Assembly (NCBI GenBank): GCA_030704615.1
Contig: CM060734.1
Location: 1,364,001 to 1,428,000 of the forward strand
Source of the DNA: Takakia lepidozioides
Lineage: Eukaryota; Plantae; Bryophyta
Length of the DNA stretch: 64,000 nt
Direction: 5' to 3'
Shown here: piece by piece, positions 42,364 through 64,000 of the stretch
Numbering within the stretch: position 1 is the first letter of the stretch
Layout: every line of letters starts with the position of its first letter
The notes under the pieces: generated by a model
The model's input: the letters and a program-made list of their open reading frames with translations, nothing else
Databases searched by the model: none
What the model was told of the DNA's origin: nothing
Translations under genes and position numbers: made by a program

Positions 42364-42639
42364 CTAGAGATTCGGCGCCATTTTTTCAGACATCGGACTT
42401 GCGGTACTCGACGAGACCTCCTCAGGCAACATCACGGGACCACGAGGGAGCATGCGAATATTCTTGTCAGCTCGCCATGAATCCTCTTCTCCGCCAAGTG
42501 CCTCATCACGTCTTCGTCTCACTGGACGGGTGTGAACATCTCCTTCCAAGTGTTGGCCACTTCGAAGCAATGGCGTGTCCCGAAGGCCCTCTCGCAAGGC
42601 TGCCGCCCACTTGCGAGGATTCTTTGATCTGGAGGCAGT
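42364..42639 (-). pseudogene. C-terminal piece of the MULE-2 transposase
   Basis: ASRSKNPRKWAAALREGLRDTPLLRSGQHLEG aligns with MULE-1 ASRSGVPSKMARALNRCTEGSPLQSRIPHLEG. Confidence 0.85.
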
Positions 42640-45600
42640 TGTCAAGTTATTTTACCACTAGTGTGAAACTAGCTAGGAAATAGCTAGCTTTTACATATTG
42701 ACATTTGGGATTGGCCCAAGTGTCAATCCAGGGGTCAAGGCAGATTTAGGCCCTGGAGTGGTTATCTTCACGGCAAGCGCGGAAGGCTCATCTTTCTCGA
42801 GTTGAGCCTCACCGCGCCTAGCTATGGCGCCGTAGTGTGGATTCCCCATGGCGTGGGGTGCACTTGGCTTGACTTGTATTTGAGTGATGAGGTTATATAT
42901 GCATGAGTTTATGCTTCAGATTTGTGAGCTCGTGCTTGTATTCTTCTTCTTTATCACTCGAGAAAGATGAGCTCGTATTTTTGTGAGTGCCAGATACGAG
43001 TTAGTTGTAGCACTTGTGGTTTTTGCTTGAGAATGAGAGAAACCAAGTTGTTATGCAAGGAGCACCGTGGAGCTCTTGGTTGTTAGAAGCGGAGGCGATG
43101 TGGGTTACAAGGTGGTAGACCTTGGCATTCGATCTTCAGCTTCAGAGATGAAAGCACCATGCTGCAGGTAATTCCAGAGCACCTTGATGGTTTCAGATTG
43201 TGTACATGCATGAGCAAGCACGATTGGGAAGAGGACCAGTCAAGAGCAGGTTATAGTGGCTTTGGTGGCAAAGCTGAGAACTGGACTTGGGAATGCGAGC
43301 TTTCATTGTGTGAAGGATTGCAAGACCAAGCGAAAGGGCTGATTTGGCTTGGGGCAAATCAGTGCACTTTGTGGAGTATGGTGAGATTGGGTTTCAATCT
43401 CGAGCTCCAGCATTGAGAGGGCTCTTGTCATGGCAAGAACAGGGCTGGAACAGGAGCTAAGAGGTACGGCAAGGCCATGGAATGTGCACCTAGGGTTTCA
43501 GAGCTTGGAAGAAGAGCTCTTGCACCACAAGAGAAGTGTCTTGTGGCTGGAAATGTAAGCCTTAGGGTTTCAGGAGCTTGGCAAAGGCTGTGGAGTGCTT
43601 AGTCTTGTCTTAGAGAGCATCAAGGAGCCAAGGAGCCAAGATAGGGGGCTGATATCTCTTGTGTGAAGATGTTGCATGTGTGGAGCATGTATTCAGCTCA
43701 TTGAAGCTTCCATCTTCAAGCTTGGAGGGCAAGCAAGGAAGAGGGAAGGGCTGACTTCCCTTATGTGAGGGCAATGCATGTGTGGAGCATGCTATCAGCC
43801 TGGTGAAGGCTTGCACTTTCAGGTGTGGGAGTGCAAGAAAAGAAGGAAGGGGCTGGTTTCCCTGTAGGGCATGTGGAGCATGCTTTCAGCCTGCTGAAGC
43901 TTGTATTTTCAGGTTTGTGGGTGCAAGAAATGAAGCAAAGGAGCTGATTCTCTTATGGTGAGAGTGGGGCATGTGTGGAGCATGCCTTCAGCCCATTGAG
44001 GCTCTTGTTTTCAAGCTTTAGAGAGCTAGAACGGAAGGTCTAGGGCTGGTTTCCACTTGGAGTGAAAGAAAAGCACTTGTAGGGCCTATGTGAGTTGGGG
44101 TTTCAACTTCAAGCTTGAAGGGAGCGCAACTCTTGAAGCAGCAGGTGTAGGGGCTGGAATAGGCTCTAAGATAGATGGTATGGCCAAGGAGAGTGCTTGA
44201 ATGAGTGCTCACAAGGGTTGGGAACCAGCAGGGCTTGGTTGTTTGCCATTGAGTTTAGTGGCGTGTTTGGGGAGGCTAAGTGAGAAAGAAGGCTTGGTTT
44301 GTGGCAACCACCTCATGGCTTAGGGCTACTATGGTGTGTGTGGGAGCCGAAAGAGCAAGAATACCTTGCTGATTTCCTCACAACCACCATAGCTCGGTGG
44401 AAAGAAGCCTAGAGTCCAAGAGACACAAACCCTAGCTTGGCGTGGCTAAACCCCTTGGAGAAATGGCTAAACTGCCAGAGCGGCCATGGATGGGGCTGTG
44501 ACGGGCTGTGCCGGTGGCCTTTTGGGGCTGTGATGGGCTGTGAGGGGCTGTGACAGGCTGTGCCGGTGGCCTTTGGGGCTGTGAGGGGCTGTGACAAGCC
44601 GTGCCTGAGCCTTTGGGGCTGTTGAGGGGCTGTGTCAGGCCGTGCCTGAGCCTTTGGGGCTGTGAGGGGCTGTGACAGAGCCGTACCTGAGGCCTTTGGG
44701 GCTGTGAGGGGCTGTGTCAGGCCGTGCCTGAGGCCTTTGGGGCTGTGAGGGGCTGTGGCGAGCTGTGACGGGCTGTGAGGGGCTATGCCAGTGGCCTGTG
44801 GGGCTGTGACGGGCTGTGCGGGGCTGTGACAGGCTATGCCTAGTGGCCTGTGGGGCTGTGACGGGCTGTGCGGGGCTATGACAGGCTGTGCCCAGTGGCC
44901 TTTGGGGTGTGAGGGGCTGTGACAAGCCGTGCCTGAGGCCTTTGGGGCTGTGACGGGCTGTGAGAGGCTATGTCAGGCCGTGCCTGAGGCCTTTGGGGCT
45001 GTGACGGGCTGTGCGGGGCTGTGACAGGCTGTGGCGAGCTGTGACGGGCTATGAGGGGCTGTGACAGGCTGTGCCCAGTGGCCTGTGGGACTGTGACGGC
45101 TGTGACCAGTGAGCTGTGTGGGCCTGTGCTGGTCTGTGGTGGCCCGTGTTGACCTGTGGACGGCCTGTGCTGACTCGTGGAGGCACTGGTGGATTGCCTA
45201 AGGACTGGCATGTGGTCTTGAAGGCCGAATTTTGAAGCTCGTGGAGGGCGGTTTTAGGAGTATCTTCATGATATTCCCATGGTCATGCAAGTGAGGGAAG
45301 AGAGGAGAGGAAGAGTGTTGGGATGAGGGCATGCTGGGGTTAGGCATTGCTTTAGCTTCTCTTCCTCGTAGTTTCCACCCTCTCATTAGGCCAAGACCTT
45401 TCCGTAGGTGGAGGCAAGAGTCAATCCGGGTTTGGGCTGGGGTGTCCTTGCAGGAGCAACGCCGGGGAGTTGTTTTTGGTGTGGGGGAGTTGTCGTTCTG
45501 ATTTCTTGTGTTTGGATCCCCTCCATACCTGCATGCTTCACTGTGCGCCATGTTAGTTTTGTGTGGGCGCTTGTTTTTATAGGTGATTGGTCCGGATTTG

Positions 45601-48220
45601 ATCACCGGCCAGTCCTAGAACATGCTGTCGATGGTGAGGCTGGGGTGATGACCAGCCAGACCATCATTGTTTCTCCTGTGGTGAGGTTGGAACCTCAACA
45701 TGCTCAAGGCAATAAGGGGGCTCAGGTGAAGCTCAAGGAAGGGCAGAGAGGACCTCAGATGCAGGGGTCTCTCCCTTCATTTGCTGGCCAACAACGGGCA
45801 GATGTGGTGTGCTGGACATGTGGAGGACCCCATGTCAAGAAGGATTGCCCAGAGGGAGGCAAAGGGCCGGCACATGCACAGCCTGCATAGTTGCAGTGTA
45901 GGCATTGTAGCAAGCACGGGCATGGAGAGGCCCAGTGTTATGGTTTGCATCCTGAGTTGCACCCAGGCCAATTCCAAGGGAACAATGGTGGCCGGGGGCG
46001 AGGTGGAGCAGCCCAGAGAGGACGAGGTGGCCAGCCACGAGGTGCAGGCCAAGGGCAAGCTCAACATGGCCAAGGACGCGGAGGTCAAGGTGTTGACTAA
46101 GGCATGGTCAACCGGCTTCAGCAGCTAGAGCAGAGGCTTGCTGTCATGGCTACAGCTCAGGTGGTACCGGCTCTAAGGCCGGATGGTCCACCTCCTGCTC
46201 TTGAGGGAGGAGATATGGGAGGCATGGGATTCATGTGTGGAGCAGCACTACCACTAGTGCAGGTGGAGTCTGCTGCAGCCGTGACTCGAGGAGCAGCACG
46301 AGTTCCTGAGCCACGAGGTGCAGAGGTGGAGTTGGATCCAGAGCGTGAGGAGGCAAGCCGTCAGGCTAGGCTTCCTCAGTCATTCACATTGGCGGAGACA
46401 GTGTCGACGCCATCCATGGCACCTAGTTCTCGCCGACTGTTACCGAGGTGGAGGTTACTATGCCATTGGGGAGAGCTACACGGGTAGCACCACTACCTAG
46501 TGTCGCCAAGGCTACGGCAGCTAGTGTGCTGCTAGGAGCAGCCACATCTGTGTGTCAAGCTCCATTGTTCTCGGCTACCATGATTGCGACGCCGGGGGTA
46601 AGACCAGCTGAGGTGTTTAGGCTCGCAGCTACACTCTGTGAGAGTGGGGAGGTTACTTCATCTTCTGCGGAGATACTGGGAGGTGTAGTGCCAGAGGGAT
46701 CCTCGGATTTGAGGGTCAAGACTGCCACGACGGCGCCATGGCAAGCTGCAGCTGCCAGGTTGATGCAGCTGCCAGCTAGGCCAGCCATTGAGCGCGCCAT
46801 GGTGACACCTGGAGTTGTCATGTTAGACAACCAGGATGGCATTTTCTGTTTGAGTGGACCGGCAGGCAAGAGGTACCGGCCACTGCGGGTCTTGTTGGAC
46901 TCGGGAGCTCAGCCACTGATGCTGGGCAGAGCTGCTATTGCAGGCTTGGGCCTCACGGAGGCGGATATGGAGCCTTGTCCTTTCCAGATACAGACGTCTC
47001 TGGGAGGATCGGAGCAAGCTCGAGGCATGACACGGCGTGAGTTGGCTATCAGACTACGGCCGGATCACCCTACAGATGGCTCAGTGATGCGAGCAAAGGC
47101 CATTGTGACAGACGCGGTCTCATACGATGTCCTGGTTGGTGGGGCAGTGTTGTACCCCATGGGCTTCACCCTGGATTTTGGGAGGAGTCAGCTTCCTATA
47201 GGCCTGCATGGCAGTCAGGGGAGGGCCGGCGTGTGCAGCTCCCTGTGACGTTCATAGGAGGAGTTGCGGTTGCCCAGCGAGGCAAGATGCCGACACTAGC
47301 AGCATTCACAACGGCAGCGAGTTGGCCTGGAGAGTTGCTTGAGGGCAACGCTCATTCAGAGGATGTGCCACCTCTGGGAGAGCAGGATGACATGTATGGT
47401 ATGGCGGAGTTGCCTACCATGGTTGCTCAGACTCCATTGTGGGGCACGAGCAAGGATTTGCAGCGGGATGCTGATTGACGGGTGCAACAAGCCTAGGTGA
47501 AGGCTTTTGTACCGTCAGGAGAGGAGGAGAGTGCGGGGATTGCACCAGGACCACCTCGGTTGTCTCCATTGGACACCACACCTATTGTGTGGCAGTATCC
47601 GGATGAAGACATTTGTCTTCTAGACTTGTTTGGCGGGATCAGCACCGGATTGGCTGCGGTGTTACAGGAAGGTGTACGAGTTCGGCGTTACCTGTATGTG
47701 GAGAGGGATGAGACTGCACGACGCGTTTCACTTCCCCATGTTGCTCAGTTGGTGCAGCGGGGTACCTGAATTGTTGTCGGTGTCTGCAATTCGTGGATAT
47801 CAGCAGGCAGGATTTGGAGCGGGTCATTTGGATCTGGTAGTGGCAGGTTGGCCTGCCAAGGGCATTTCATCAGCCGGGCATGGCAATGGATTGCGAGACT
47901 TGAGTCGGTGTCTGTTTGGGAGATGTGCGGGTTTTGCGCCACTTGCAGCTTCCATCAAGCTTATATCCAGCATACATCTTGGAGATGTGCCAATGATGGG
48001 CGATTCTCGGGCCAGGGTGAGGCCAGTGTGCATCAGTACGGTCATGGCTTGGGTCAGCAGTGTGTTTGACTAGATGCAGCTATAGTGGGGTCACGGGCTC
48101 ATCACGTCCATCGGCTATGGTGGACTAACTTGATGCAACCCGCACTGCTCAAGCGTGCACTTGATGGGTGCAGCGGCCAGCACATCTCACACGTGGATCC
48201 ATTTTGGACACAGGAGGCAG
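42640..48220 (+). mobile_element. Partial degraded copy (A) of the DNMT-gypsy element: 3-kb leader, gag with N-terminal deletion, protease, partial DNMT
   Basis: Inverted repeat of 59483 to about 52720; lacks the equivalent of about 55280-56410; stops and frameshifts; retains LLDSGAQ and LDLFGGISTG. Confidence 0.92.
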
Positions 48221-48528
48221 AAGAAGAATACAAGCACGAGCTCACAAAGCTGAAGCATAAACTCATGCATATATAACCTCATCACTCAAATACAAGTCAA
48301 GCCAAGTGCACCCCACGCCATGGGGAATCCACACTACGGCGCCATAGCTAGGCGCGGTGAGGCTCAACTCGAGAAAGATGAGCCTCCGCGCTTGCCGTGA
48401 AGATAACCACTCCAGGGCCTAAATCTGCCTTGACCCCTGGATTGACACTTGGGCCAATCCCAAATGTCAATATGTAAAAGCTAGCTATTTCCTAGCTAGT
48501 TTCACACTAGTGGTAAAATAACTTGACA
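48221..48528 (-). repeat. Third, truncated copy of the element's 5' end (TGTCAAG...)
   Basis: Matches about 59175-59483 and the reverse complement of about 42640-42948. Confidence 0.92.
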
Positions 48529-48530
48529 GC

Positions 48531-48719
48531 TGTCGTGCGCATACATATCGCTACACAACTACATCGCTGTCCAAAACCACACAACACATGTGCACACCAC
48601 ACACTAGTATACCACTAGTCCACCACTAGTCCAGCCACTAGTCCAACCACTAGGCTACAACTAGTCAGTCACTAGGCTGCCACTATGCTGCCCACTATGG
48701 CAGTCACTAGTCCACACAA
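48531..48719 (-). repeat. 189-bp LTR-like 3' terminal segment (TGTGTGG...CGACA)
   Basis: TG...CA ends; follows the PPT; CCACTAG subrepeats; second copy in opposite orientation at 59485-59672. Confidence 0.88.
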
Positions 48720-48978
48720 TCGCCCCCCTAGCTGGTGCTTAGGTCCCTCTAAGTCCAGGTAGCCACAAGATGTGATAGTGACCATAGCCTCACTAAGTCC
48801 TCCACCACTATCCCTACTACACTCAAACTCGATAGATCAAGAGGCCGGGTGCAAGAGTTGCCCCATCGTTAGTCGCCGTCTTGCAACCTGTGAACTTGAG
48901 CTTGGGATCTCATGTATTGACTCCTATGAGCTTGGCCTCCCATGTCTTGTTAGCTGCCTCCAGTCATGTCCACTGCCA

Positions 48979-51900
48979 CTATCCCAAGCAGTGTGGACAC
49001 AACCAATCTCCGTCAGGAACCTTCTCAAGAGGTGGTGTCAAGCATCCCATATGCCAACCCCTTGAGCATCGATCACACACCAGCATGGTGGCTGCCCCTT
49101 TGGCAGACCCACAGAGCATGCACCTCAAACCTGCAGGTACCACTGCCAAGTTTGGGTCAACTCTGCCATCGACATTGGGAAGGTGACATGGCGCACAATT
49201 ACGCACATGGTCCTTCCAAGTCATGCCATCCCGACCCTCCAAGATCAGGACCCCTGAGGGCAACACCTCTCGAACCCTCAGAATAACACGCCCTGCAGTA
49301 ACATCCAGAGTCGTAGGAGCAGTCTGCTGCAAATAAACATAGTCACCAGGGCTAAACCTCCGAACCCCAGGACGATATCCTCCACCACGTATAGTGGCAT
49401 ACCTCAACGTATCACGGTGCTGTGCAATGGCAAGGTTCTCAAAAGCCATGGGCATGACTTTCTTGAACAACTCTGCACGCTGATCACATGCACGTACCCA
49501 CACGTCCGGATCGTCAAGGTTAAGGACTTGAGCAGTGTCCCTACGAATGGCTGCAGGCAAATCCGGCTCTCGGCCAAAGAGAAGGAAATATGGTGAGAAG
49601 GAGGCAAGTGATGCTTGTTTGCTGAACCTGTAGCCCATGGCTAACCAAGGAACCTGAAGATCCCAATCTCCTAGGTGTCCCTTCTGCAAGCCATACTTGC
49701 GCAAACCCCTCTTCACCGTCTGAACAACTCTCTCTGCTAAGCCATCGGCCTCAGGATGATCCCGAGAAGTGGTGCGGTGGTCTATCAAGGCTTTATCACA
49801 CAAAGCCTGAAACTCCCCCAAGAACTCTCTCCCTTGGTCCGTGAGTACCTCAGCTGGAGCACCAAATCGGCTAAGCACACGATCCAAGAATGCATACGCA
49901 GCCCCCTCACTAGCCTTGTCAGGCAATGGAACCAACTCAATCCACTTGGAGAAGTGCTCCACCATCACCAACACATATCTGTGGTGGCGCATAGTCAGTG
50001 GCAACGGTCCTGCGAAGTCAAGACTCCACCTGTAGCCCAATCCCATGATTGGTAAAGGATGCAACTGTGGTGTAGGGGCGTTGAATGAAGCACGCACCCT
50101 GTCACACACCATGCACCTAGCCACGAACTGTTGCACCTCTGTATGCATACCACGCCACCAATACTGCCCCTGCAGTAAACTGTGAGTGCGTCGCACTCCA
50201 AAATGCCCCAACTCCTCATGGGCATGCCGCACTAACCGTGCACGCTGTGTGGGGTGAGGCACAATCCTCACCCGACCATCCTCCCACACTCGAAGTAGGT
50301 GTATCCCCTCCCACTTGAACCTCTTGGCTCGTTGCAGGATCCGATCCCTCTCCCTGGCAGTCACAGTGGCTGCCGTGTCTCCCGTGCGGAGGTAGTCCAA
50401 CACAGCCGAATCCTCATGTATATCTCTGGCACCACCTGGCTCATCACTAGCCTCAGGGTCCTCAGACACTCCGTCTACAGTCATCCCTGTTGTAGGTCCA
50501 ACCTGACCTCCCGATGCCAAGATACACAAAAATGCAGATGCGTGCCATCCCGGCACCATCTCCTCGTCCGTCTCACCATGCCACCGAGCTCCAGTGTCAT
50601 CCTGCTGGCTCATGCATGGATTGCGACTCAATCCATCCGCATCCCGATTGACCAAACCCGGTCGATGCACAACCTGAAAGTCATACTCCTGGAGTATGAG
50701 TGCCCACCGTGCAAGCTTCCCCGTAAGCTTGTCTGACTCCATCAACCACTTGAGTGGCTGGTGATCCGTGACAAGGGTGAAAAGATTGCCGTATAGATAG
50801 CACCTGAAGTGTGCCACGGCCCACACTGCAGCTAAGCACTCTCCCTCATATGAGCTGTACTTAGCCTCTGCAGCGTTGTTCGAGCGGCTAGCATAAGCCA
50901 CTACGAACTCTCTTCCCTCATCATCCACCTGTGTGAGCACCGCTCCAAGCCCCAGCATGCTCCAATCCGTATGCAGCTGAAAGGGACGCCCCCTGATAGG
51001 TCGTCTCAGGATAGGCGCCGAGGTCAACCTCGCCTTGAGCTCTTGAAAAGCTCGTTCCTGCTCATCTTCCCACTGCCACTCCTGGTCCACCTTGGTCAGC
51101 TTGGTTAGAGCCTTTGCAATGGTACTAAATCCCTTGACAAACCGTCTATAATAGTTTGCCAACCCCATGAAAGCTCGAACTCGGCTCACATCCGTGGGGC
51201 GTGGAATTTGTGCAATGGCCTCTACCTTAGTCTGCTGTACCCCCAATCCTCCAGGATATATCATGTGACCCAGATACTCAATCTGGTTGTGGAAAAACTT
51301 GCACTTCCCCGGATGCAACTTCAATCCGTGCGCTCTCAAGCGCTCCAATACCACCTGAAGGTGTCTCTCATGCTCCTCCATCGTAACACTAAAGATGATG
51401 ATGTCATCTATGTAGCACCGAGCAAAGTCCACCCCTGCTAGAATCCTATCCATGACTCTCTGAAACTCTGCAGGAGCATTCTTAAGCCCAAATGGTAAGA
51501 ACCGCCACTGATATAGGCAATCCTTGCCGTGCTCATTGATCCCCCAGAATGTCGTCTTCTGCTTGTCCGCCTCCTTGATTGGCAACTGGTGATATCCGGA
51601 TCGTAAATCCAAAGTGCTAAAGGCCTTAGCATGCCCGATGGCATCAAAGATCTCCTCTGGTGTTGGCATGGCATACTTATCGGACTTGGTCTGACGATTT
51701 ACAGGCCGGTAATCACCGCACATACGTCTCTCCGTCCAATTGCCATAGACATCCTTCTTGGCTGGCATCACTGTGGCTGAAGCATACTCTCCACCAGAGA
51801 GCTCCACCAAACCTGCCTCCCAGAGATCTTGAGTCCTCATCTGAATCAAAGACCTCTCCATGTCACTGTATCTATAGGGTCTCCGAAAGATTGGCGTGTC

Positions 51901-52113
51901 AGTGGCCAACTCAATACGGATCTCTTGACCCTTCAGTGCTCCCAAGTCCTTCAAACTGAAGGCAAAGCAATTCCTGTAAGCCCTCAGGAACCGCCGTATA
52001 CGTCGTCTCTCTCCTCCGGTGACAATGGGTCCAATGTCAGGCTCCCAATTGTCCTCCGTAACTGCAACCTTAAGTCCAGTGGGCTTAGAGGTAGAGGACG
52101 CGTCCAGTGGTTG
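48979..52113 (-). CDS. Pol: reverse transcriptase, RNase H, DDE integrase, C-terminal PHD finger
   Basis: RMCGDYRPVN, LDLRSGYHQ, YIDDI, HTDWS, HEELGH/CMVC, WSLDFAGP, TDQGREF, GLAERVV, and CMLC...VCDRCSRGWHMGC...WLCPHC (C4HC3). Frame is open from 52113. Confidence 0.96.
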   Translation of the reverse strand, partial: QPLDASSTSKPTGLKVAVTEDNWEPDIGPIVTGGERRRIRRFLRAYRNCFAFSLKDLGALKGQEIRIELATDTPIFRRPYRYSDMERSLIQMRTQDLWEAGLVELSGGEYASATVMPAKKDVYGNWTERRMCGDYRPVNRQTKSDKYAMPTPEEIFDAIGHAKAFSTLDLRSGYHQLPIKEADKQKTTFWGINEHGKDCLYQWRFLPFGLKNAPAEFQRVMDRILAGVDFARCYIDDIIIFSVTMEEHERHLQVVLERLRAHGLKLHPGKCKFFHNQIEYLGHMIYPGGLGVQQTKVEAIAQIPRPTDVSRVRAFMGLANYYRRFVKGFSTIAKALTKLTKVDQEWQWEDEQERAFQELKARLTSAPILRRPIRGRPFQLHTDWSMLGLGAVLTQVDDEGREFVVAYASRSNNAAEAKYSSYEGECLAAVWAVAHFRCYLYGNLFTLVTDHQPLKWLMESDKLTGKLARWALILQEYDFQVVHRPGLVNRDADGLSRNPCMSQQDDTGARWHGETDEEMVPGWHASAFLCILASGGQVGPTTGMTVDGVSEDPEASDEPGGARDIHEDSAVLDYLRTGDTAATVTARERDRILQRAKRFKWEGIHLLRVWEDGRVRIVPHPTQRARLVRHAHEELGHFGVRRTHSLLQGQYWWRGMHTEVQQFVARCMVCDRVRASFNAPTPQLHPLPIMGLGYRWSLDFAGPLPLTMRHHRYVLVMVEHFSKWIELVPLPDKASEGAAYAFLDRVLSRFGAPAEVLTDQGREFLGEFQALCDKALIDHRTTSRDHPEADGLAERVVQTVKRGLRKYGLQKGHLGDWDLQVPWLAMGYRFSKQASLASFSPYFLLFGREPDLPAAIRRDTAQVLNLDDPDVWVRACDQRAELFKKVMPMAFENLAIAQHRDTLRYATIRGGGYRPGVRRFSPGDYVYLQQTAPTTLDVTAGRVILRVREVLPSGVLILEGRDGMTWKDHVRNCAPCHLPNVDGRVDPNLAVVPAGLRCMLCGSAKGAATMLVCDRCSRGWHMGCLTPPLEKVPDGDWLCPHCLG

Positions 52114-55100
52114 CTATGTTGCAACCTCTTGAGCAGTACTCCCTGCCTGCTCAGTCAATGACAAGGCCTCATCCTGCCCCATCATCTCATCCTTGAGGAC
52201 CTCCTCAACCCGAGAAGAATCCCCAACCTCATCCATCACAGCCGCCTTGGCTGCCAACTCCCTCTGAACCTCGAGCACCTCCCACGTGTGCCATGGATGC
52301 ATGCACCCCGTGGTCCTCACATGCTCGCCCCCACTCACTGCCTGTACCGTCTCGGTAGGCAGAGAGACCATCGAGGGAAGTGTACTCCGCACTCTGCGTT
52401 GCTCAGCCATAGCCAAGCTGATAATCCAGGTCAAGCAATTGAGATCCATTGCTTGCCCCAACACTTGACGACGTGATGCCTCAGAAAGAGACGACACCGC
52501 CGTGGTACCAGTGGTAAAACCCATTGCCCGCTCACGCTCGTCAGCATTAGGCTCCACTAACTGCTGCAACTGAGCATCCCACAGGAGGCCAGGTCCACTA
52601 TCCCGGAAAGCATGCGATCCTGGGAAGCTGAGCAGTGTAGGTAATGCTGCTCGTGGTTGACCCACCTTGTTGACCACTGCCAAAGGCGAACGGTCATCGT
52701 GTCTCACACGCTGAGACTGCCTCCCTGTGTCCAGAATGCTATCCACTGTGAGATGTGCTGGCCGCTGCACCCCATCAAATGCACGCTTGAGCAGTGCGGG
52801 TGGCATCAAGTTAGTCCACCATAGCCGTGGACGATGAGCCCGTGACCCCACTGTAGCTGCATCTAGCAACACTGCTGACCCAAGCCACGACCGGACTTGA
52901 TGCACACTGGCCATCACCCTGGCCCGAGAATCGCCCATCAGTGGCACATTCTCCAAGATGTATGCTGGAGATACAGCTTGATGAAGCTGCAAGTGGCGCA
53001 AAACCCGCACCATCTCCCAAAACAGACCCGACCTCGAGTCTCGCAATCCATTGCCATGCCCGGCTGATGAATGCCCTTGGCAGGGCCAACCTGCCACTAC
53101 CAGATCAATGGAGCCAACCCGCTCCAAATCCTGCGCCCCCAGCAACGAAATGTCTGCTGGCAAGGCCTGCTGATATCCACGAATTGCAGACACCGACAAC
53201 AACTCAGGGTACCGCTGCACCAACTGAGCAACATGGCGAAGTGAAACGCGTCGTGCAGTCTCATCCCTCTCCACATACAGGTAACGCCGAACTCGTACAC
53301 CTGCCTGTAACACAGCAGCCAATCCGGTGCTGATCCCGCCAAACAAGTCCAGAAGACAAATGCCTTCATCCGGATACTGCCACACAATAGGTGTGGTGTC
53401 CAATGGAGACAACTGAGGTGGTCCTGGTGCAATCCCCGCACTCTCCTCCTCTCCTGACGGTACAAAAGCCTCCACCCAGGCTTGTTGCACCCGTCGATCA
53501 GCATCCCGCTGCAAATCCTTGCTCGTGCCCCACAATGGAGTCTGAGCAACCATGGTAGGCAACTCCGCCATACCATACATGTCATCCTGCTCTCCCGGAG
53601 GTGGCACATCCTCTGAATGAGCGTTGCCCTCAAGCAACTCTCTAGGCCAACTCACTGCCGCTGTGAATGCTGCTAGTGTCGGCATCTTGCCTCGCTGGGC
53701 AACCGCAACTCCTCCTATGAACGTCACAGGGAGCTGCACACGCCGGCCCTCCCCTGACTGCCATGCAGGCCTATAGGAAGCTGACTCCTCCCAAAAATCC
53801 AGGGTGAAGCCCATGGGGTACAACACTGCCCCACCAACCAGGACATCGTATGAGACCGCGTCTGTCACAATGGCCTTGGCTCGCATCACTGAGCCATCTG
53901 TAGGGTGATCCGGCCGTAGTCTGATAGCCAACTCACGCCGTGTCATGCCCCGAGCCTGCTCCGATCCTCCCAGAGACGTCTGTATCTGGAAAGGACAAGG
54001 CTCCATATCCGCCTCCGTGAGGCCCAAGCCTGCAATAGCAGCTCTGCCCAGCATCAATGGCTGAGCTCCCGAGTCCAACAAGACCCGCAGTGGCCGGTAC
54101 CTCTTGCCTGCCGGTCCACTCAAACAGAAAATGCCATCCTGGTTGTCTAACATGACAACTCCAGGTGTCACCATGGCGCGCTCAATGGCTGGCCTAGCTG
54201 GCAGCTCCATCAACCTGGCAGCTGCAGCTTGCCATGGCGCCGCCGTGGCAGTCTTGACCCTCAAATCCGAGGATCCCTCCGGCACTACACCTCCCACTAT
54301 CTCCGCAGAAGATGAAGTAACCTCCCCACTCTCACAGAGTGTAGCTGCCAGCCTGAACACCTCAGCTGGTCTTACCCCCGGCGTCGCAATCATGGTAGCC
54401 GAGAACAATGGAGCCTGGCACACAGATGTGGCCGCTCCTAGCAGCACACTAGCTGCCGTAGCCTTGGCAACACTAGGTAGTGGTGCTACCCGTGTAGCTC
54501 TCCCCAATGGCATAGTAACCTCCGCCTCGGTAACAGTCGGGCGAGAACTAGGTGCCATGGATGGCGTCGACACTGTCTCCGCCAATGTGAATGACTGAGG
54601 AAGCCTAGCCTGACGGCTTGCCTCCCCACGCTGTGGATCCAACTCCACCTCTGCACCTCGTGGCTCAGGAACTCGTGCTGCTCCTCGAGTCACGGCTGCA
54701 GCAGACTCCACCTGCACTAGTGGTAGTGCTGCTCCACACATGAATCCCATGCCTCCCATATCTCCTCCCTCAGGAGCAGGAGGTGGACCATCCGGCCTTA
54801 GAGCCGGTACCACCTGAGCTGTAGCCATGGCAGCGAGCCTCTGCTCTAGCTGCTGAAGCCGGTTGGCCATGCCTTGGTCAACACCCTGACCTCCGCGTCC
54901 TTGGCCATGTTGAGCTTGCCCTTGGCCTGCACCTCGTGGCTGGCCACCTCGTCCTCTCTGGGCTGCTCCACCTCGCCCCCGGCCACCATTGTTCCCTTGG
55001 AACTGGCCTGGGCGCAACTCAGGATGCAAACCATAACACTGGGCCTCTCCATGCCCGTGCTTGCCACAATGCCCACACTGCAACTGTGCAGGCTGTGCAT

Positions 55101-56274
55101 GTGCCGGCCCTTTGCCTCCCTCTGGGCAATCCTTCTTGACATGGGGTCCTCCACATGTCCAGCACACCACATCCGCCCGTTGTTGGCCAGCAAATGAAGG
55201 GAGAGACCCCTGCATCTGAGGTCCTCTCTGCCCTTCCCTGAGCTTCACCTGAGCCCCCTTGTTGCCTTGAGCACGTTGAGGTAGTGGTTGGCTAGGAGCA
55301 CCACTACCCCGTGGTGTCTCCTTAGCAAATCCCACCATGACCACTCGTTCCTCCACCATGTTGAGCTCTATCCGCTCTGCCAGCAAAAACACATTTGCTA
55401 AGGTGGGTTGGGCCGCTTGTAGGAGAGTTGCATCCCGCACCCTTCTCCTCAGCTCCTTGTCCAATATCCCATACCAGAATTGGACTGCCTGAGCTTCCGT
55501 AACCCCTTGGGTTACATTTATCAAGCGCCTCATGCGAGTGAAAGCCTCCCTCAAGCTCTCGGTCGGCTTCCGTTGGAACTCTTGCAAGCTCCGCAACTTC
55601 TCTGTCCTCACCCCTTGGTAGTTCCCTCTCAACTCTTCGAAGAACTCCACAACAGGGTTGAAGGCAGGCACGGGTGCTAGTGCTGGTGCGGTAGTGGCTT
55701 GGGTGGACGTCGTAGCTACTGTACCACCAGTCCCACTGCTACTTGCTGAAGCTGCCGGTGCAGCGGCAGGTGTAGCCACTGCCCTCGTGGCTCTAGTGCC
55801 CCTAGTGATGGAGACATAGTCGGGTGACCAGTACATCCTCCACTCCTCGATCTCAACCTCATGCCCCCGCCTGAACTCATGGTAATCATCCATAGGCGGC
55901 CCCTCAAGGTGCTGAAACAGCCCCTTCCATGCCATGAAAGGCGTAAATAGTTGTGGATTGCGCATTTGCTGCAAATCACACCAACTATCAAACTCTTGGA
56001 TAAAATCATCCAACTCGATGGTGCCCACCGCCCCAGAGTACCTTCGTGGCCCCTTGGTAGCTCCATACATCTCCTCCATTGTGTCCCACAACAATGGCAA
56101 AGAAACAACTTGCACCGCCGGTATGAGTCCTCCTGAATCCGAACCTTCCGTAGAAGACACAGGAGGTGAAGGTGGCCTAAACCGCACACCTCGTCTCGTG
56201 TACCCACTAGTATCGCTAGTGCTCGAACCGGCACTGTCCCCAGCAACTAGTGGCACCTCCGTGTTGACACTCAA
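52114..56274 (-). CDS. Gag (two Zn knuckles) - aspartic protease - C5 cytosine DNA methyltransferase polyprotein
   Basis: CWTCGGPHVKKDC, CGHCGKHGHGEAQC; LLDSGAQ; DNMT motifs LDLFGGISTG, YVERD, AGWPCQGHS, ILENVP, AHRPRLWW, ERERAMGF, LGQAMD. First in-frame ATG is at 56079. Confidence 0.94.
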   Translation of the reverse strand: MSVNTEVPLVAGDSAGSSTSDTSGYTRRGVRFRPPSPPVSSTEGSDSGGLIPAVQVVSLPLLWDTMEEMYGATKGPRRYSGAVGTIELDDFIQEFDSWCDLQQMRNPQLFTPFMAWKGLFQHLEGPPMDDYHEFRRGHEVEIEEWRMYWSPDYVSITRGTRATRAVATPAAAPAASASSSGTGGTVATTSTQATTAPALAPVPAFNPVVEFFEELRGNYQGVRTEKLRSLQEFQRKPTESLREAFTRMRRLINVTQGVTEAQAVQFWYGILDKELRRRVRDATLLQAAQPTLANVFLLAERIELNMVEERVVMVGFAKETPRGSGAPSQPLPQRAQGNKGAQVKLREGQRGPQMQGSLPSFAGQQRADVVCWTCGGPHVKKDCPEGGKGPAHAQPAQLQCGHCGKHGHGEAQCYGLHPELRPGQFQGNNGGRGRGGAAQRGRGGQPRGAGQGQAQHGQGRGGQGVDQGMANRLQQLEQRLAAMATAQVVPALRPDGPPPAPEGGDMGGMGFMCGAALPLVQVESAAAVTRGAARVPEPRGAEVELDPQRGEASRQARLPQSFTLAETVSTPSMAPSSRPTVTEAEVTMPLGRATRVAPLPSVAKATAASVLLGAATSVCQAPLFSATMIATPGVRPAEVFRLAATLCESGEVTSSSAEIVGGVVPEGSSDLRVKTATAAPWQAAAARLMELPARPAIERAMVTPGVVMLDNQDGIFCLSGPAGKRYRPLRVLLDSGAQPLMLGRAAIAGLGLTEADMEPCPFQIQTSLGGSEQARGMTRRELAIRLRPDHPTDGSVMRAKAIVTDAVSYDVLVGGAVLYPMGFTLDFWEESASYRPAWQSGEGRRVQLPVTFIGGVAVAQRGKMPTLAAFTAAVSWPRELLEGNAHSEDVPPPGEQDDMYGMAELPTMVAQTPLWGTSKDLQRDADRRVQQAWVEAFVPSGEEESAGIAPGPPQLSPLDTTPIVWQYPDEGICLLDLFGGISTGLAAVLQAGVRVRRYLYVERDETARRVSLRHVAQLVQRYPELLSVSAIRGYQQALPADISLLGAQDLERVGSIDLVVAGWPCQGHSSAGHGNGLRDSRSGLFWEMVRVLRHLQLHQAVSPAYILENVPLMGDSRARVMASVHQVRSWLGSAVLLDAATVGSRAHRPRLWWTNLMPPALLKRAFDGVQRPAHLTVDSILDTGRQSQRVRHDDRSPLAVVNKVGQPRAALPTLLSFPGSHAFRDSGPGLLWDAQLQQLVEPNADERERAMGFTTGTTAVSSLSEASRRQVLGQAMDLNCLTWIISLAMAEQRRVRSTLPSMVSLPTETVQAVSGGEHVRTTGCMHPWHTWEVLEVQRELAAKAAVMDEVGDSSRVEEVLKDEMMGQDEALSLTEQAGSTAQEVAT

Positions 56275-56959
56275 CCGGTCATGAACATGTCCCTAACCCC
56301 CTCTCCACAAGGTAACCGGGTAGAGAACCTGTTGCGGCTTATGGTTTGGAATACTAAGTTCCTAACATAGCCTACACCTGTACCTGCATCCACCGCAAGC
56401 ACTCCTATGGTTGGCTGGTCATCACCCCAGCCTCACCATCGACAGCATGCTCTAGGACTGGCCGGTGATCAAATCCGGACCAATCACCTATAAAAACAAG
56501 CGCCCACACAAAACTAGCATGGCGCACAGTCAAGCATGCAGGTATGGAGGGGATCCAAACACAAGAAATCAGAACGACAACTCCCCCACACCAAAAACAA
56601 CTCCACGGTGTTGCTCCTGCAAGGACACCCCAGCCCAAACCCGGACTGACTCTTGCCTCCACCTACGGAAAGGTCTTGGCCTAATGAGAGGGTGGAAACT
56701 ACGAGGAAGAGAAGCTAAAGCAATGCCTAACCCCAGCATGCCCTCATCCCAACACTCTTCCTCTCCTCTCTTCCCTCACTTGCATGACCATGGGAATATC
56801 ATGAAGATACTCCTCAAACCGCCCTCCACGAGCTTCAAAATTCGGCCTTCAAGACCACATGCCAGTCCTTAGGCAGTCCACCAGTGCCTCCACGAGTCAG
56901 CACAGGCCGTCCACAGGTCAACACGGGCCACCACAGACCAGCACAGGCCCACACAGCTC

Positions 56960-57630
56960 ACTGGTCACAGCCGTCACAGTCCCACAGGCCACTGGGCACA
57001 GCCTGTCACAGCCCCTCATAGCCCGTCACAGCTCGCCACAGCCTATCACAGCCCGTCACAGCCCCACAGGCCACAGGGCACAGCCCGCCACAGCCTGTCA
57101 CAGCCCGCACAGCCCGTCACAGCTCGCCACAGCCCCTCACAGCCCCAAAGGCCTCAGGCACGGCCTGACACAGCCCGTCACAGCCCGTCACAGCCCCAAG
57201 GCCTCAGGCACGGCTTGTCACAGCCCCTCACAGCCCAGACCCTTGGCAGCGGCAGAAAGATGTTGGACTTGGGCCATGCGCGCATCGTAGCTTGTGACGC
57301 TACATTGGAACCACTGGGCACAGCCTGTCACAGCCCCACAGCCCGTCACATGCCCACAGGCCACTGGGCACAGCCCGTCACAGCCCCTCACAGCCCGTCA
57401 CAGCCCCAAAGGCCTCAGGGGGCCTGTCACAGCCCCTCACAGCCCATCACAGCCCCAAAGGCCTCAGGCACGCCTGACACAGCCCCTCACAGCCCCAAAG
57501 GCCTCAGGCACGGCTTGTCACAGCCCCTCATAGCCCCAAAGGCCACGGGCACAGCCTGTCACAGCCCCAAAAGGCCACCGGCACAGCCCGTCACAACACC
57601 CAAGGCCACAGGGACAGCCCGTCACAGCCC
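56960..57630. repeat. CACAGCC-based minisatellite in the element leader (mirror copy at about 44490-45110)
   Basis: Dozens of CACAGCC units spaced about 10-11 bp apart. Confidence 0.9.
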
Positions 57631-59484
57631 CATCCATGGCCGCTCTGGCAGTTTAGCCATTTCTCCAAGGGGTTTAGCCACGCCAAGCTAGGGTTTGTGT
57701 CTCTTGGACTCTAGGCTTCTTTCCACCGAGCTATGGCGGCTGTGAGGAAATCAGCAAGGTATTCTTGCTCTTTCGGCTCCCACACACCACCATAGTAGCC
57801 CTAAGCCATGAGGTGGTTGCCACAAACCAAGCCTTCTTTCTCACTTAGCCTCCCCAAACACGCCACTAAACTCAATGGCAAACAACCAAGCCCTGCTGGT
57901 TCCCAGCCCTTGTGAGCACTCATTCAAGCACTCTCCTTGGCCATAGCATCTATCTTAGAGCCTATTCCAGCCCCCTACACCTGCTGCTTCAAGAGTTGCG
58001 CTCCCTTCAAGCTTGAAGTTGAAACCCCAACTCACATAGGCCCTACAAGTGCTTTTCTTTCACTCCAAGTGGAAACCAGCCCTAGACCTTCCGTTCTAGC
58101 TCTCTAAAGCTTGAAAACAAGAGCCTCAATGGGCTGAAGGCATGCTCCACACATGCCCCACTCTCACCATAAGAGAATCAGCTCCTTTGCTTCATTTCTT
58201 GCACCCACAAACCTGAAAATACAAGCTTCAGCAGGCTGAAAGCATGCTCCACATGCCCTACAGGGAAACCAGCCCCTTCCTTCCTTTCTTGCACTCCCAC
58301 ACCTGAAAGTGCAAGCCTTCACCAGGCTGATAGCATGCTCCACACATGCATTGCCCTCACATAAGGGAAGTCAGCCCTTCCCTCTTCCTTGCTTGCCCTC
58401 CAAGCTTGAAGATGGAAGCTTCAATGAGCTGAATACATGCTCCACACATGCAACCTCTTCACACAAGAGATATCAGCCCCCTATCTTGGCTCCTTGGCTC
58501 CTTGATGCTCTCTAAGACAAGACTAAGCACTCCACAGCCTTTGCCAAGCTCCTGAAACCCTAAGGCTTACATTTCCAGCCACAAGACACTTCTCTTGTGG
58601 TGCAAGAGCTCTTCTTCCAAGCTCTGAAACCCTAGGTGCACATTCCATGGCCTTGCCGCACCTCTTAGCTCCTGTTCCAGCCCTGCTCTTGCCATGACAA
58701 GAGCCCTCTCAATGCTGAAGCTCGAGATTGAAACCCAATCTCACCATACTCCACAAAGTGCACTGATTTGCCCCAAGCCAAATCAGCCCTTTCGCTTGGT
58801 CTTGCAATCCTTCACACAATGAAAGCTCGCATTCCCAAGTCCAGTTCTCAGCTTTGCCACCAAAGCCACTATAACCTGCTCTTGACTGGTCCTCTTCCCA
58901 ATCGTGCTTGCTCATGCATGTACACAATCTGAAACCATCAAGGTGCTCTGGAATTACCTGCAGCATGGTGCTTTCATCTCTGAAGCTGAAGATCGAATGC
59001 CAAGGTCTACCACCTCGTAACCCACATCGCCTCCGCTTCTAACAACCAAGAGCTCCACGGTGCTCCTTGCATAACAACTTGGTTTTTCTCATTCTCAAGC
59101 AAAAACCACAAGTGCTACAACTAACTCGTATCTGGCACTCACAGATACGAGCTCATCTTTCTCGAGTGATAAAGAAGAAGAATACAAGCACGAGCTCACA
59201 AATCTGAAGCATAAACTCATGCATATATAACCTCATCACTCAAATACAAGTCAAGCCAAGTGCACCCCACGCCATGGGGAATCCACACTACGGCGCCATA
59301 GCTAGGCGCGGTGAGGCTCAACTCGAGAAAGATGAGCCTTCCGCGCTTGCCGTGAAGATAACCACTCCAGGGCCTAAATCTGCCTTGACCCCTGGATTGA
59401 CACTTGGGCCAATCCCAAATGTCAATATGTAAAAGCTAGCTATTTCCTAGCTAGTTTCACACTAGTGGTAAAATAACTTGACAT

Positions 59485-59672
59485 TGTGTGGACTAGTGAC
59501 TGCCATAGTGGGCAGCATAGTGGCAGCCTAGTGACTGACTAGTTGTAGCCTAGTGGTTGGACTAGTGGCTGGACTAGTGGTCGACTAGTGGTATATTAGT
59601 GTGTGGTGTGCACATGTGTTGTGTGGTTTTGGACAGCGATGTAGTTGTGTAGCGATATGTATGCGCACGACA
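59485..59672 (+). repeat. Second copy of the LTR-like terminal segment, forming the right end of the 17-kb insertion
   Basis: Reverse complement of 48531-48719; followed by CAGT, matching 42636-42639. Confidence 0.9.
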
Positions 59673-62432
59673 CAGTCCGCATCAACATTTCCTGCCTGTC
59701 CGGCCCCAAGCCCCACTGTTTCCCTTTCAAGAACTCGTTGTACCTGCATTGCTGCATAATTGACCTCACAATGTCCTCCGTTGTGGCAGTGAGGATGTCC
59801 ACCAGAAGCGCCGCAAAGGAGGCACGCCAGGAAGAATGTACTGATTCGGCCATGTTTGTTGTCAGCATGTCGGTGTCGGAGTCGAGACACATTTCCTGCA
59901 CATGCACATGTTCAGGTTACAAGCAAATTACAAATAATGAGTAGCTAGCATGATATTCAGCGGGACGCAAATTCGTCCAACTCACCTCCCGCATATAGTC
60001 GCCGAACTAGAGGAAACGATAATGCCACCATGCTAGCCAACTAACCATCGCTCCCTCGTCTAATTTCTTTACAGCACCTGACGTTGTCCACCAAGCCCGT
60101 ATACATGCAAACTGTGTCTCTGCATCATCCAAGGTGGGAGCACGCTTCCACGCAAGACACATGGAACGGTGCTCCTCTCTGAAATCTGGCGCCACGAGCC
60201 TGGTTGTGTACTGCGACAAGCTCTACAGAAAATGGAACCCACAAGATCTCTCCTTGTTTTTCATCGGAACATTGGGGTCTTCCCCTACACCCTTCGGATG
60301 ACAGCCCAATTTGCTTGTGCGTTGTCTGCCATGAAACCACGGAAATTGGGAGGGGGAAATCCTGCCCTGGCCATATGTTTGTTTATTCCCTGCCAAAGAA
60401 GCATCTCCGATTGTGTGTCCTCTCCTTTCATCTCACAAATAACAATTGTCATTAGCATCCTGCAGTGGGTGTCGTAGACATGTGCACCCATTGTCACCCA
60501 CTGGTGATTTGTAATTCGCTTGATATGGTCAAACATGACCCAACTGTTTGACAAGTCCCCACTCGTCATCTGGTGGACCAGTTCGACGCCGCTGCTAGGC
60601 CCACACGTTGACATTTTGAATACGAAACAGCGATCTGCCTCAATCCCTTGTCCTGGAAATCTACTTCCATGAATGTAGTCATATCCACATCGTCGCTTCA
60701 CCTCCAGAATAGAGTGCATATCCGAGCCACGCCCAATTCTCTGTTTGCAGGAGACAATGTGGTTTCAGACATTCGGTGAACAGACGTGGAACACTGACTC
60801 CAGCAATGCCTCCATTTCCTTCTCATCGAGAGGAACTCTGTCGGAGCCGTCTTCCGACATAATTCTGGCCAATGCCATCTTATGGGCGGCCTACAACTGT
60901 ATCTGTTTGGGTTTGGCACTAGGTCTCAACTTAACCTCCTCCTGAACGAGCTGCGCTGCCTTGTGGACATCCTCCCGCGAGTTACCCCTCGCCAATTTGT
61001 GACAATGGAAACCAACGTGTATGCAAGCTCGTGTGAGGTCAGGGAAACGGTGCAACACATAGAATTGCTTGGCATTATAAACAGACATGCAATGTGGTGG
61101 TTCTTTGCAATGTGCACACTTAAATGTGGAGTTTGGAACCTTCTCCTGAGCTCGAAATGGTTGATGAGCTGTGTTTGTCCAATCCGTCTCGTTCCTGTGA
61201 CCTCTGGATTTAAAGTGGAAGCAAGTTGGGGAGAAACACCGCAACGCGCCCACACAAACAACGTAGCGCACCCGCACACCATTGAGCATCTTCATGCTGG
61301 TGGTTTTGGTGACGCACCAAGGATGACCGTCATGTTTCCTATCCATATCTATCAACATTCCGGACGCCCTCGAATAGTCCGTTCGAGGAGGGAACTCAAA
61401 GAAGATATTACCGTCGACGTCTGCGGGAAGGCATGTAACGGATTTAATTGCGAACTTGTTGTAGTCCAGGAATGCGGCCCCTGGCCTTTGCGCAATAACT
61501 GCCAACGGTATGCAGTCAGAAGGTATATGACCAGTGCAGATGCGTTGCACAAACCAATAATTGTGGCGTCTGACAAGGAGCGTGGGGGGGCCAGCGTGCA
61601 AGCACCTTCCCCATGGACAGAGGGAACTGACAGAGGTGGCATTCCAGTGGGTCTGATTGCAAGATTGAGTGCGAGACCCTCGCTGCCAAAAGTCAACATT
61701 CAACAAATGCAACATTGCACAAAAAGTGGAACTTTGGTTCAAAGGAGACATTTTTATTAATAATGAACTTTGACAAGTATGCATGCCCTCACAAACCAAG
61801 GGAAGCCAAAAGTATGCATGCAATCCATGCTCCGGTAAGTTGGAAATTTGCTCCCGTGTTGCACTGTTCTCACCAAGAAGCTGGAACCTCAATTGGCCTC
61901 TCAACAAGTTCATGACTGACAGGGTGTCGGTAGGTGAAGACAATGGATGCAGCCCGTCGCCTTTGGTGTAGTGGACAACGGTGTCATCTCCTCCGATATA
62001 TGCACCATCGTAAATCGAGATTTTTGTTGTGGAGACTCTATGTCCATAGGACTCATCCTCGTAGCTTATGAGAATGTCCCCATACACTGTTTGCGATGGA
62101 ATCCTCTCTGGCAGGTACGTACACCCGATGCAATCCTCGTAGGCCCACAGGCAGCACCTCCAATGATGTAGGAAGGCCGTGCGGCTTTTGGGGATGTTCC
62201 ATGCTGGCGAAAACTGCAGATCAACGATTCGCAGGCACCAAAGCCGCGCAGGCCCGTCCCGGCAAGGCTGATTGTGGAGACCAGGAAGGTACTCAAGAGC
62301 GGACAGGTGCACCCTCCTCTGCTGAGAGTGGTCTATCCAATCCTGCAAGTATATGAAAATATCCCCTGACTTGGGTGAGAAGTCCCACGGGGTGAGATGC
62401 TTGTTTGGGCAGTTGCTGGGATACCACGCCAT
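59673..62432 (-). pseudogene. MULE-2 transposase (GCM-like domain plus DDE core), frameshifted and disrupted by the insertion
   Basis: HDGHPW...CVGALRC...RACIHVGFHCH; WVMFDH; GFMADNAQA; TNMAESVHSSW; intron at about 59896-59985 at the same position as in MULE-1. Confidence 0.88.
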
Positions 62433-62669
62433 CGCCGACTATTGAAAGGGCTACCAGGAAGCAGAGAGGGTGCGCAGGGAAGGGGGAGTGTGGGGAAGCT
62501 GAAGTGAGAGGAGCTCGGAGCGAGCAAGTGTTGTTGTTGTCTCGGTTTGAAACGCGTGGGTCACGAGCGAAGGTCGGGCAAGTGGCAAAGAAAAAGAGCA
62601 ACATTTAATATAGCCGTACCCAGGAATGAGGGGCAGAATTTAATTCGACATGGCGTCAAATCGGAGGGT

Positions 62670-63780: not shown

Positions 63781-64000
63781 CCCGTATCGACCCTTCATCA
63801 ACAATTTTGATTTTTTTTTCGCGTTTTTTTGTCTAATCAGTCACTCAACTTAGAGTTTTTCGCCCGCGGTCCACTTTTTGGCACGTTATGCCCACCAATG
63901 TCGTCCGGTAGAGACAAATTCGGTGCCGGATTTCCATCCATGAGGTGGACCGACTTACTTGCAGGATGAAAATTCGGTGCCGGTTTTCCATCCTGCAGCG

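Follow-up and report, generated by a model that had tools for sequence, protein, structure and literature searches.

A DNMT3-type cytosine methyltransferase under purifying selection in a Ty3/gypsy retrotransposon of Takakia lepidozioides and its bryophyte relatives

The stretch of DNA analysed here, referred to as the window, comprises 64,000 nucleotides of Takakia lepidozioides (Eukaryota; Plantae; Bryophyta; NCBI GenBank assembly GCA_030704615.1, contig CM060734.1, positions 1,364,001 to 1,428,000 of the forward strand). It contains a Ty3/gypsy retrotransposon that encodes a C5 cytosine DNA methyltransferase (DNMT) of the DNMT3 class. The DNMT is under purifying selection similar to that on the reverse transcriptase (RT) of the element, the ratio of nonsynonymous to synonymous substitution rates (dN/dS) being about 0.09 for the former and 0.08 for the latter, and the domain is almost certainly functional and selected. 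New here are the occurrence of gypsy elements with a DNMT in land plants (a model species among them), a conserved readthrough-type stop codon past the DNMT, putative self-priming, and termini that point to a circular intermediate. The coding region consists of two open reading frames (ORFs):

52114-56292, minus strand: ORF1, encoding Gag, zinc knuckles, an aspartic protease and the DNMT, and ending in TAG (Pfam, motif positions)
48979-52113, minus strand: ORF2, encoding RT (YIDD), RNase H, integrase and a C-terminal PHD finger (Pfam, motif check)

On the minus strand, ORF1 is a single unbroken frame of 1392 codons with its first ATG at 56079, two zinc-knuckle-like motifs and the protease motif LLDSGA at 54081. 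ORF2 follows in the identical frame past one TAG and runs for 1044 codons. Pfam recognizes Gag and protease weakly in ORF1 together with DNA_methylase (PF00145, E=1.7e-12), and in ORF2 it recognizes RT, RNase H (RH), integrase (IN; rve and H2C2) and the PHD finger. The catalytic residues of RT (YIDD) and integrase (D699/D759/E794) are unbroken. The order Gag, protease (PR), RT, RH, IN with a DDE integrase is that of Ty3/gypsy elements, as are the TG...CA termini with a short target-site duplication; in place of two identical direct long terminal repeats (LTRs) around an internal region, the element has split repeats. Membership in the DIRS, PAT or Ngaro groups was rejected on the rve and H2C2 integrase and on there being no recombinase family among the Pfam matches, and membership among the chromoviruses (Tcn1, Tf1/Sushi) was rejected because a PHD finger, not a chromodomain, follows the integrase. 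The best matches of this finger are CHD4, PHF12, PHD1 of KDM5B/5A, ATXR5 and BHC80, and several of the PHD fingers of CHD4, PHF12, KDM5 (PHD1), ATXR5 and BHC80 read histone H3 unmethylated at lysine 4 (H3K4). PHD fingers in retrotransposons have been noted previously (PMC6673714). The methyltransferase domain and its motifs are placed as follows:

52390-53370, minus strand: C5 cytosine methyltransferase domain, DNMT3-type, carrying ordered motifs I-X with intact catalytic PC and ENV (motifs, Pfam, fold)
53352-53323, minus strand: motif I, LDLFGGISTG (this and the rows below by motif positions)
53277, minus strand: motif II
53091-53074, minus strand: motif IV, GWPCQG
52956-52945, minus strand: motif VI, LENV
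52839-52810, minus strand: motif VIII, AHRPRLWWTN
52539-52516, minus strand: motif IX
52473-52444, minus strand: motif X, RRQVLGQAMD

The original prediction of ordered DNMT motifs in frame with Gag and protease was borne out, as motifs I-X all lie within 52400-53370 and ORF1 is unbroken. Its placing of the domain between protease and RT was right as to order, with the qualification that the TAG at 52116-52114 separates it from RT. The canonical, unrearranged motif order with FxGxG, PC and ENV is that of C5 methyltransferases of the DNMT3 class. When ranked by sequence against solved structures, the domain matches DNMT3A (1.2e-11) ahead of DNMT3B (1.7e-8), DRM (4e-6) and HhaI (5e-4). An AlphaFold model built from a 33-row alignment has a predicted local distance difference test (pLDDT) score of 89.3 and finds DNMT3A as its best fold match (E=2.1e-18, template modelling (TM) scores 0.69/0.83), the top rows all being DNMT3. 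The domain is therefore nearer to DNMT3 than to DRM or bacterial enzymes, as judged by structure-sequence ranking and fold search. Among 110 aligned domains, the catalytic Cys is conserved in 97%, the motif VI Glu in 96% and the motif VIII Arg in 92-93%, and the S-adenosylmethionine (SAM)-binding motif is kept; in the Klebsormidium and Closterium proteins motif VI reads EHV, not ENV. Taken from these sequence features, the enzyme is probably catalytically active on DNA.

A protein search with the DNMT scored 7996 candidates and returned 293 relatives, and 62 longer ones were obtained from 7999. Named relatives at 65-77% identity come from Calypogeia fissa, Marchantia polymorpha, M. paleacea, Riccia sorocarpa and Sphagnum, and Klebsormidium KFL_009030040 is about 45-46% identical over 260 residues with the order protease-DNMT-RT. 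Further relatives from the Pol search are Closterium and Tetraselmis proteins and a Coleochaete transcript (70%); the Tanacetum matches of that search (37-39%) are ordinary gypsy elements, and no named DNMT-bearing protein of a vascular plant is among the matches listed. Trees were built by FastTree only, for RT-RNase H (109 rows) and for the DNMT (168 rows), without host DNMT3 or bacterial outgroups. In both, the window groups with liverwort and Sphagnum proteins (support 97 and 100, respectively) to the exclusion of Klebsormidium and Closterium; its position in the DNMT tree is just outside a Calypogeia-Sphagnum-Marchantia group. This placement by itself points to a bryophyte or another early land plant as the likely host. 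When 1.84 billion representatives were searched with a profile, 543 clusters (50% identity) reached E<=1e-30; RT-RH-DNMT-IN-PHD is the most frequent long architecture among the top 150, and none of these is a host DNMT3 outgroup, all being of the transposable-element type. From metagenomes, 80 of 159 confirmed loci were kept, 65 of them closest to Sphagnum proteins. A scan of viral contigs gave 15 pattern matches, none of them a relative. A land-plant gypsy element with a DNMT had been presented as unusual and akin to charophyte elements. The kinship holds, but the element is no one-off, as relatives occur in several liverworts and mosses.

Some features of these relatives merit mention in their own right. 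A larger clade (P0157, P0158, P0163, P0305 and others; 100 of the 168 tree rows) carries the DNMT between RNase H and integrase, together with a PHD finger, and the position of the DNMT within the polyprotein has changed at least once. The PHD-integrase gypsy clade reaches streptophyte algae and a chlorophyte through P0255, P0281 and P0285 (Closterium), P0186 (the Coleochaete transcript) and P0259 (Tetraselmis). The Closterium proteins are DNMT-RT fusions, and the Tetraselmis protein starts with a motif VIII-like stretch. Another protein, P0178, has a Dam adenine methylase domain in addition to RT and this DNMT and is probably a DIRS-type element with two methyltransferases.

Selection was estimated between the window and those related loci having one unbroken match per domain. 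For the DNMT, the proportions of nonsynonymous and synonymous differences are 0.195 (pN) and 0.73 (pS), and the median dN/dS is 0.086 (31 of 43 loci with dS defined), beside 0.078 for RT (14 of 32), 0.060 for RNase H (18 of 29), 0.082 for integrase (13 of 14) and 0.15 for protease (8 of 31). Three points speak against leaning hard on these values: dS is near saturation (median pS 0.73), making all of the figures rough; among close loci dN/dS is 0.57-0.69 for the DNMT and 0.37-0.66 for RT; and stops are present in the DNMT of 41 of 43 loci, as decayed copies have. High ratios in all domains among close copies are what decaying copies would be expected to show. Two other readings of the DNMT, a host fragment that was captured recently and drifts neutrally and an artefact of assembly, have next to no probability. 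In the block that holds the element (42640-59672), which is rearranged, a second, degenerate copy has an indel-rich end, and this may reflect assembly error. However, named proteins of liverworts, mosses and algae have this domain at the same position, it recurs in the 543 clusters, and its dN/dS is low. Summed contig depth in run X2, which is not copy number, is 1.20 million over 52567-53217 in the DNMT and 1.05-1.19 million over RT, an equality that would not be expected had most copies lost the domain. For the DNMT domain itself, drift and artefact are thereby refuted, and the intact, selected gypsy DNMT of the original prediction came through the two outcomes set in advance to undo it, namely neutral evolution and absence from most copies.

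Between the DNMT and RT lies the stop codon:

52108-52116, minus strand: in-frame stop in the readthrough context TAG CAA CCA, with TAG at 52116-52114 (from sequence; kept in relatives)

The CAA CCA after the TAG is an exact CARYYA, for which the chance by composition is 0.0012; the motif stands in frame 11 times in 2438 codons. UAG-CAR-YYA is the type I, or tobamovirus-type, readthrough consensus, and it works after UAA too (PMC3542737). When the stop was surveyed over the 80 metagenome loci, 6 were too short, 22 had no anchor and 52 were anchored, with 48 of the latter forming subfamily 1. In that subfamily, TAG (34) or TAA (12) followed by CAAYY is found in 46 of the 48 anchored loci; one locus has GAG and one has two stops. 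The more distant subfamily 2 has a stop in all 8 of its matches (7 TAA, 1 TAG), followed by CAATCA (4), CAATTA (1) or AAATCA (3), so that the exact CARYYA is present in five. Annotated proteins agree, since Marchantia Mp4g09160 and Mp8g17980 and a Calypogeia protein terminate 75-77 residues past the DNMT. In Klebsormidium- and Closterium-type proteins the DNMT continues into RT with no stop. As far as can be judged from sequence, it is very probable that Pol is made by readthrough of this conserved stop, and the DNMT would likely be made at the level of Gag, with Pol at a few percent.

Other routes to Pol have been considered, namely splicing of an intron that ends at the TAG and possibly removes the DNMT, or re-initiation at an AUG belonging to ORF2, and these are distinctly unlikely. 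The TAG could be a splice acceptor in phase with ORF2, and several Marchantia gene models skip the stop. However, each model that continues into RT lacks a different stretch across the stop site, as is usual for gene predictors at stops, the sequence upstream is purine-rich with 22% T in 50 nt and no pyrimidine tract, and 7 of the 8 subfamily 2 matches have TAA. Re-initiation gains from subfamily 1, where CAA-CCC is one base from the consensus and is followed by an ATG two codons past the stop; this fits re-initiation as well as readthrough and counts against the latter. Yet the window has CTG at the position of that ATG. A contig of run X12, which is possibly an RNA run, covers the stop without a gap (50316-52488) and is given no weight on splicing or expression. 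A further point against readthrough is that the long stem that RNA folding predicts downstream of the stop, both in the window and in subfamily 1, is statistically weak (z from -2.5 to +0.1 in 14 sequences).

The termini and the sites next to them are listed below.

59168-59483, minus strand: repeat A, 316 bp, the 5' terminus, starting TGTC
59151-59167, minus strand: putative primer-binding site directly after A, self-complementary and not tRNA-like
48721-48730, minus strand: polypurine tract directly before repeat B, conserved in relatives
48531-48720, minus strand: repeat B, 190 bp, ending GACA
48524-48534, minus strand: B/A junction GACA-GC-TGTC, a palindrome of both element ends plus two extra bases; putative internal integrase site
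48219-48528, minus strand: repeat A', second copy of A, without its last few bases
59483-59672, plus strand: repeat B', terminal copy of B, with 2 mismatches in 190 against B and oriented as the degenerate second copy
42636-42639, plus strand: left target-site duplication CAGT
59673-59676, plus strand: right target-site duplication CAGT

Since B comes directly after the polypurine tract and A directly before the primer site, we infer that B and A together would act as the working LTR. The full layout A-coding-B-A-B occurs in related loci, including L055, L059 and L049, and is rearranged in the window itself; the GACA-GC-TGTC junction recurs in L003 and L012. With L008 (contig end), the partial L042 and the inverted L019 and L022 left out of the terminus counts, 7 of 17 informative loci run from B into A' and 10 end at B. 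Both ends are visible in 6 loci, at 5 distinct sites, and each of the 6 is flanked by a 4-bp target duplication; 3 are of the short form and 3 of the long. In 5 of 6 loci, the last base ahead of the primer site and the first base past the polypurine tract meet directly at the A'/B' junction, with about 19 extra bases in the remaining one, and joints between primer side and polypurine side are also present in contigs from the window's organism (48720-59168 and 42954-59482). These arrangements make it reasonably probable that integration proceeds via an end-joined circle cut at the internal B/A site. The window's own copy is rearranged, so the argument for a circle rests mainly on relatives. The 10 of 17 loci without A'B' tell against it, for they fit one-LTR circles and equally a later B-B' recombination. 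From either source, the short form A-coding-B would be unable to rebuild an LTR. As a separate observation, an unrelated element at L048:16594-17246 has a B-A-B layout with a CA-GT-TG junction, suggesting that split repeats exist in other families.

The primer site at 59151-59167 is a perfect 17-nt complement of 59337-59321 within A (fold z -8.1). In Sphagnum-like loci the complement is 11 nt long and of other sequence, still pairs, and begins about 30 nt past TATAAA. No tRNA genes were found in the window. The complementarity and its covariation in relatives point to putative self-priming, with the position of the transcript start being predicted.

Taken together, these features suggest a life cycle in which the DNMT of the Gag frame is packaged in the particle and methylates new complementary DNA (cDNA) before integration, with Pol supplied by occasional readthrough. 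The balance tips slightly toward this proposal, and to a like degree toward cDNA as the main substrate of the enzyme. Most ribosomes would stop past the DNMT and a few percent would read through, after which the protease would free the DNMT inside the particle. Reverse transcription, self-primed as in Tf1, would give a linear cDNA of the form [BA]-coding-[BA], whose ends would be joined; the DDE integrase would then cut GACA-GC-TGTC inside one LTR to leave A-coding-B-A-B. The PHD finger likely favours nucleosomes with unmethylated H3K4, and a new copy would land pre-methylated and in silent chromatin. Packaging is more likely because the DNMT sits at the end of the Gag frame, whereas the disguise or self-regulation of new copies that was originally suggested is a hypothetical consequence. 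A more ambitious version of this account is doubtful and offered tentatively. In it, a green-lineage gypsy clade present in bryophytes, Marchantia included, would load hundreds of DNMT3 molecules per particle by means of the readthrough stop behind the enzyme, methylate its cDNA, close it into a two-LTR circle by end joining and integrate through the action of the DDE integrase on the internal palindrome, guided by the PHD finger to chromatin with unmethylated H3K4. Circles are usually dead ends for LTR elements; here they would be an obligatory precursor, because only the A-coding-B-A-B form can rebuild the LTR.

Several observations weigh against packaging and cDNA methylation. Many relatives keep the DNMT fused in Pol, as RT-RH-DNMT-IN in 100 of 168 tree rows, so amounts at the level of Gag are not required by the family overall. 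The 80 loci are redundant, drawn from few hosts and not independent events, with L055 and L059 being one site. The isolated Klebsormidium domain gave no methylation in yeast, where human DNMT3B failed too, and its authors regard the result as inconclusive (PMC5890265). It is unlikely, though of some appeal, that the DNMT acts instead on chromosomal DNA in the nucleus, at the integration site, sister copies or competing elements, with Gag-level expression serving copy-number control or host tolerance. Such expression would yield free enzyme besides the packaged enzyme, members of the DNMT3 class are de novo enzymes that in plants methylate heterochromatin (PMC6453930), and host benefit was raised as an option in the Klebsormidium work (PMC5890265). 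However, all architectures seen place the DNMT inside a polyprotein, linking it to the particle, and once cleaved it has no separate targeting domain attached. There is even less to favour a DNMT kept for binding DNA or RNA or for another substrate, for example to hold cDNA ends for joining or to methylate element RNA, instead of making 5-methylcytosine on DNA. The inactive Klebsormidium domain and the EHV for ENV in Klebsormidium and Closterium would fit such a role, whereas the Cys, Glu, Arg and SAM-binding residues conserved across the 110 domains, and a fold closest to the DNA-acting DNMT3A and not to DNMT2, speak for methylation of DNA.

The surroundings of the intact coding region include a second copy:

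42640-48220, plus strand: copy A, the 5' part of a second, degenerate copy (repeat A, leader, partial Gag, protease and a frameshifted N-terminal part of the DNMT), lying in the opposite orientation to the intact coding region

The DNMT had been predicted in copy A as well. Its N-terminal part is indeed there, with motifs I and II in frame, but copy A is no intact second copy, being frameshifted afterwards and ending before motifs IX and X; its last 700 bases need about 18 gap openings against the intact copy. The two copies differ by methylation-type transitions and a 1.1-kb deletion. The transitions number 11/258 at CG, 20/452 at CHG and 20/1697 at CHH, and the enrichment at CG and CHG indicates genomic methylation but not its writer. 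Depletion of CpG as a sign of self-methylation was rejected, as observed/expected values of 0.53-0.60 in the element, 0.25-0.33 in two gypsy copies without a DNMT and 0.56 in the first 20 kb do not discriminate. The block 42640-59672 has one CAGT pair and the order A, truncated coding region, inverted A-coding-B-A', and B', and it is either a post-insertion inversion with partial duplication or a contig mis-oriented at repeat boundaries. The element is inserted in another repeat (flanks 42395-42639 and 59673-60959). In run X6, a contig of depth 58.1 appears from its table entry to span both flanks with four shared letters, resembling an empty site. The 5' leader (56300-59150) is long and contains a 10-bp GCTGTGAC-type tandem array and 102-bp repeats.

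Elsewhere in the window, two decayed gypsy copies of another family, 84-90% alike, lie at 20260-26800 (plus strand) and 26858-39904 (minus strand), the latter with direct LTRs of about 920 bp. Neither has a DNMT match, and 10-bp arrays like that of the leader occur in this family at 27446, 32017 and 39542. A 96-bp repeat array at 62660-63850 has open frames on both strands with 32-residue units, and adjoining it at 60891-62438 is a Cys/His-rich frame of 515 codons with no Pfam match. A palindromic unit, AGCTCAAACAGTGTGCG...CGCACACTGTTTGAGCT, is present in about 12 copies spaced about 117 bp apart at 12950-14850, and an exon of a ribosomal protein L1p/L10e-family gene is found at 3792-4307 (minus strand).

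Since 2018, work on what transposon-borne DNMTs do has been held back by hosts that are hard-to-handle algae. Marchantia polymorpha, a model plant for which methylomes and methyltransferase mutants exist, has relatives whose catalytic motifs are intact among its annotated hypothetical genes, so DNMT activity, its sequence context and cDNA methylation become readable from accessible material. The stop past the DNMT leads to a sharp prediction on enzyme dose. In turn, the terminal layout offers an explanation for the unexplained DIRS-like repeats on integrase-bearing gypsy elements, and LTR finders that rely on a matching pair of ends would overlook or wrongly classify all of this clade.

The closest known system is KnitGypsy-Dnmt3 of Klebsormidium nitens (de Mendoza et al. 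2018, PMC5890265), a gypsy element with DIRS-like repeats and a DNMT3-related enzyme. The window element shares with it the gypsy domains, a homologous and unrearranged DNMT3-related domain, the DIRS-like layout (seen in relatives) and purifying selection, for which dS is near saturation. In KnitGypsy-Dnmt3 the DNMT is described as lying in the Pol ORF with RT and RNase H, whereas here it ends the Gag frame at the conserved TAG (52116-52114), and the nearest relatives of the window element are bryophyte elements (65-77%). The parts of PMC5890265 covered here give no priming, readthrough or integration route, and its figures and main supplement may depict a stop, the order of the domains or a broader distribution. 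Literature searches, with subscription journals and supplementary trees mostly outside their coverage, found no report of DNMT-bearing gypsy elements in bryophytes or other land plants. The literature searched likewise contained no report of readthrough in bryophyte DNMT-gypsy elements and, among title-level listings, none of a permuted-LTR integration route. In the accessible text of PMC6317226 the words 'methyltransferase', 'PHD' and 'Marchantia' do not occur, and passages of PMC12344493 and bioRxiv 10.64898/2026.05.21.726589 mention 'streptophytes' in citing the 2018 work.

Individual features have counterparts in other systems. An in-frame stop ahead of the polymerase in a CARYYA context recalls tobamovirus type I readthrough and gammaretrovirus gag-pol. 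The gammaretrovirus readthrough stop lies between Gag and protease, unlike that of the window element, which comes after protease and DNMT. The self-complementary primer site, with its covariation, resembles that of Tf1, which self-primes with its first 11 bases (PMC7175516). Tf1/Sushi and the plant Tcn1 chromoviruses have ordinary LTRs and a chromodomain, whereas the repeats of the window element are split and it carries a PHD finger together with a DNMT. SymbioDIRS-Dnmt3 of Symbiodinium, which methylates CG de novo in yeast (PMC5890265), likewise has a DNMT3-type domain in a retroelement polyprotein and A-coding-B-A-B repeats, but it uses a tyrosine recombinase instead of a DDE integrase and is an independent acquisition according to its authors. 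Finally, the EpiLTRs of Cymbomonas and Euglena (bioRxiv 10.64898/2026.05.21.726589) are also LTR elements with a DNMT and a chromatin-reader domain; their DNMT is sister to DNMT4 and accompanied by DAM and a chromodomain, and the streptophyte Gypsy-DNMT3 is described there as a separate acquisition.

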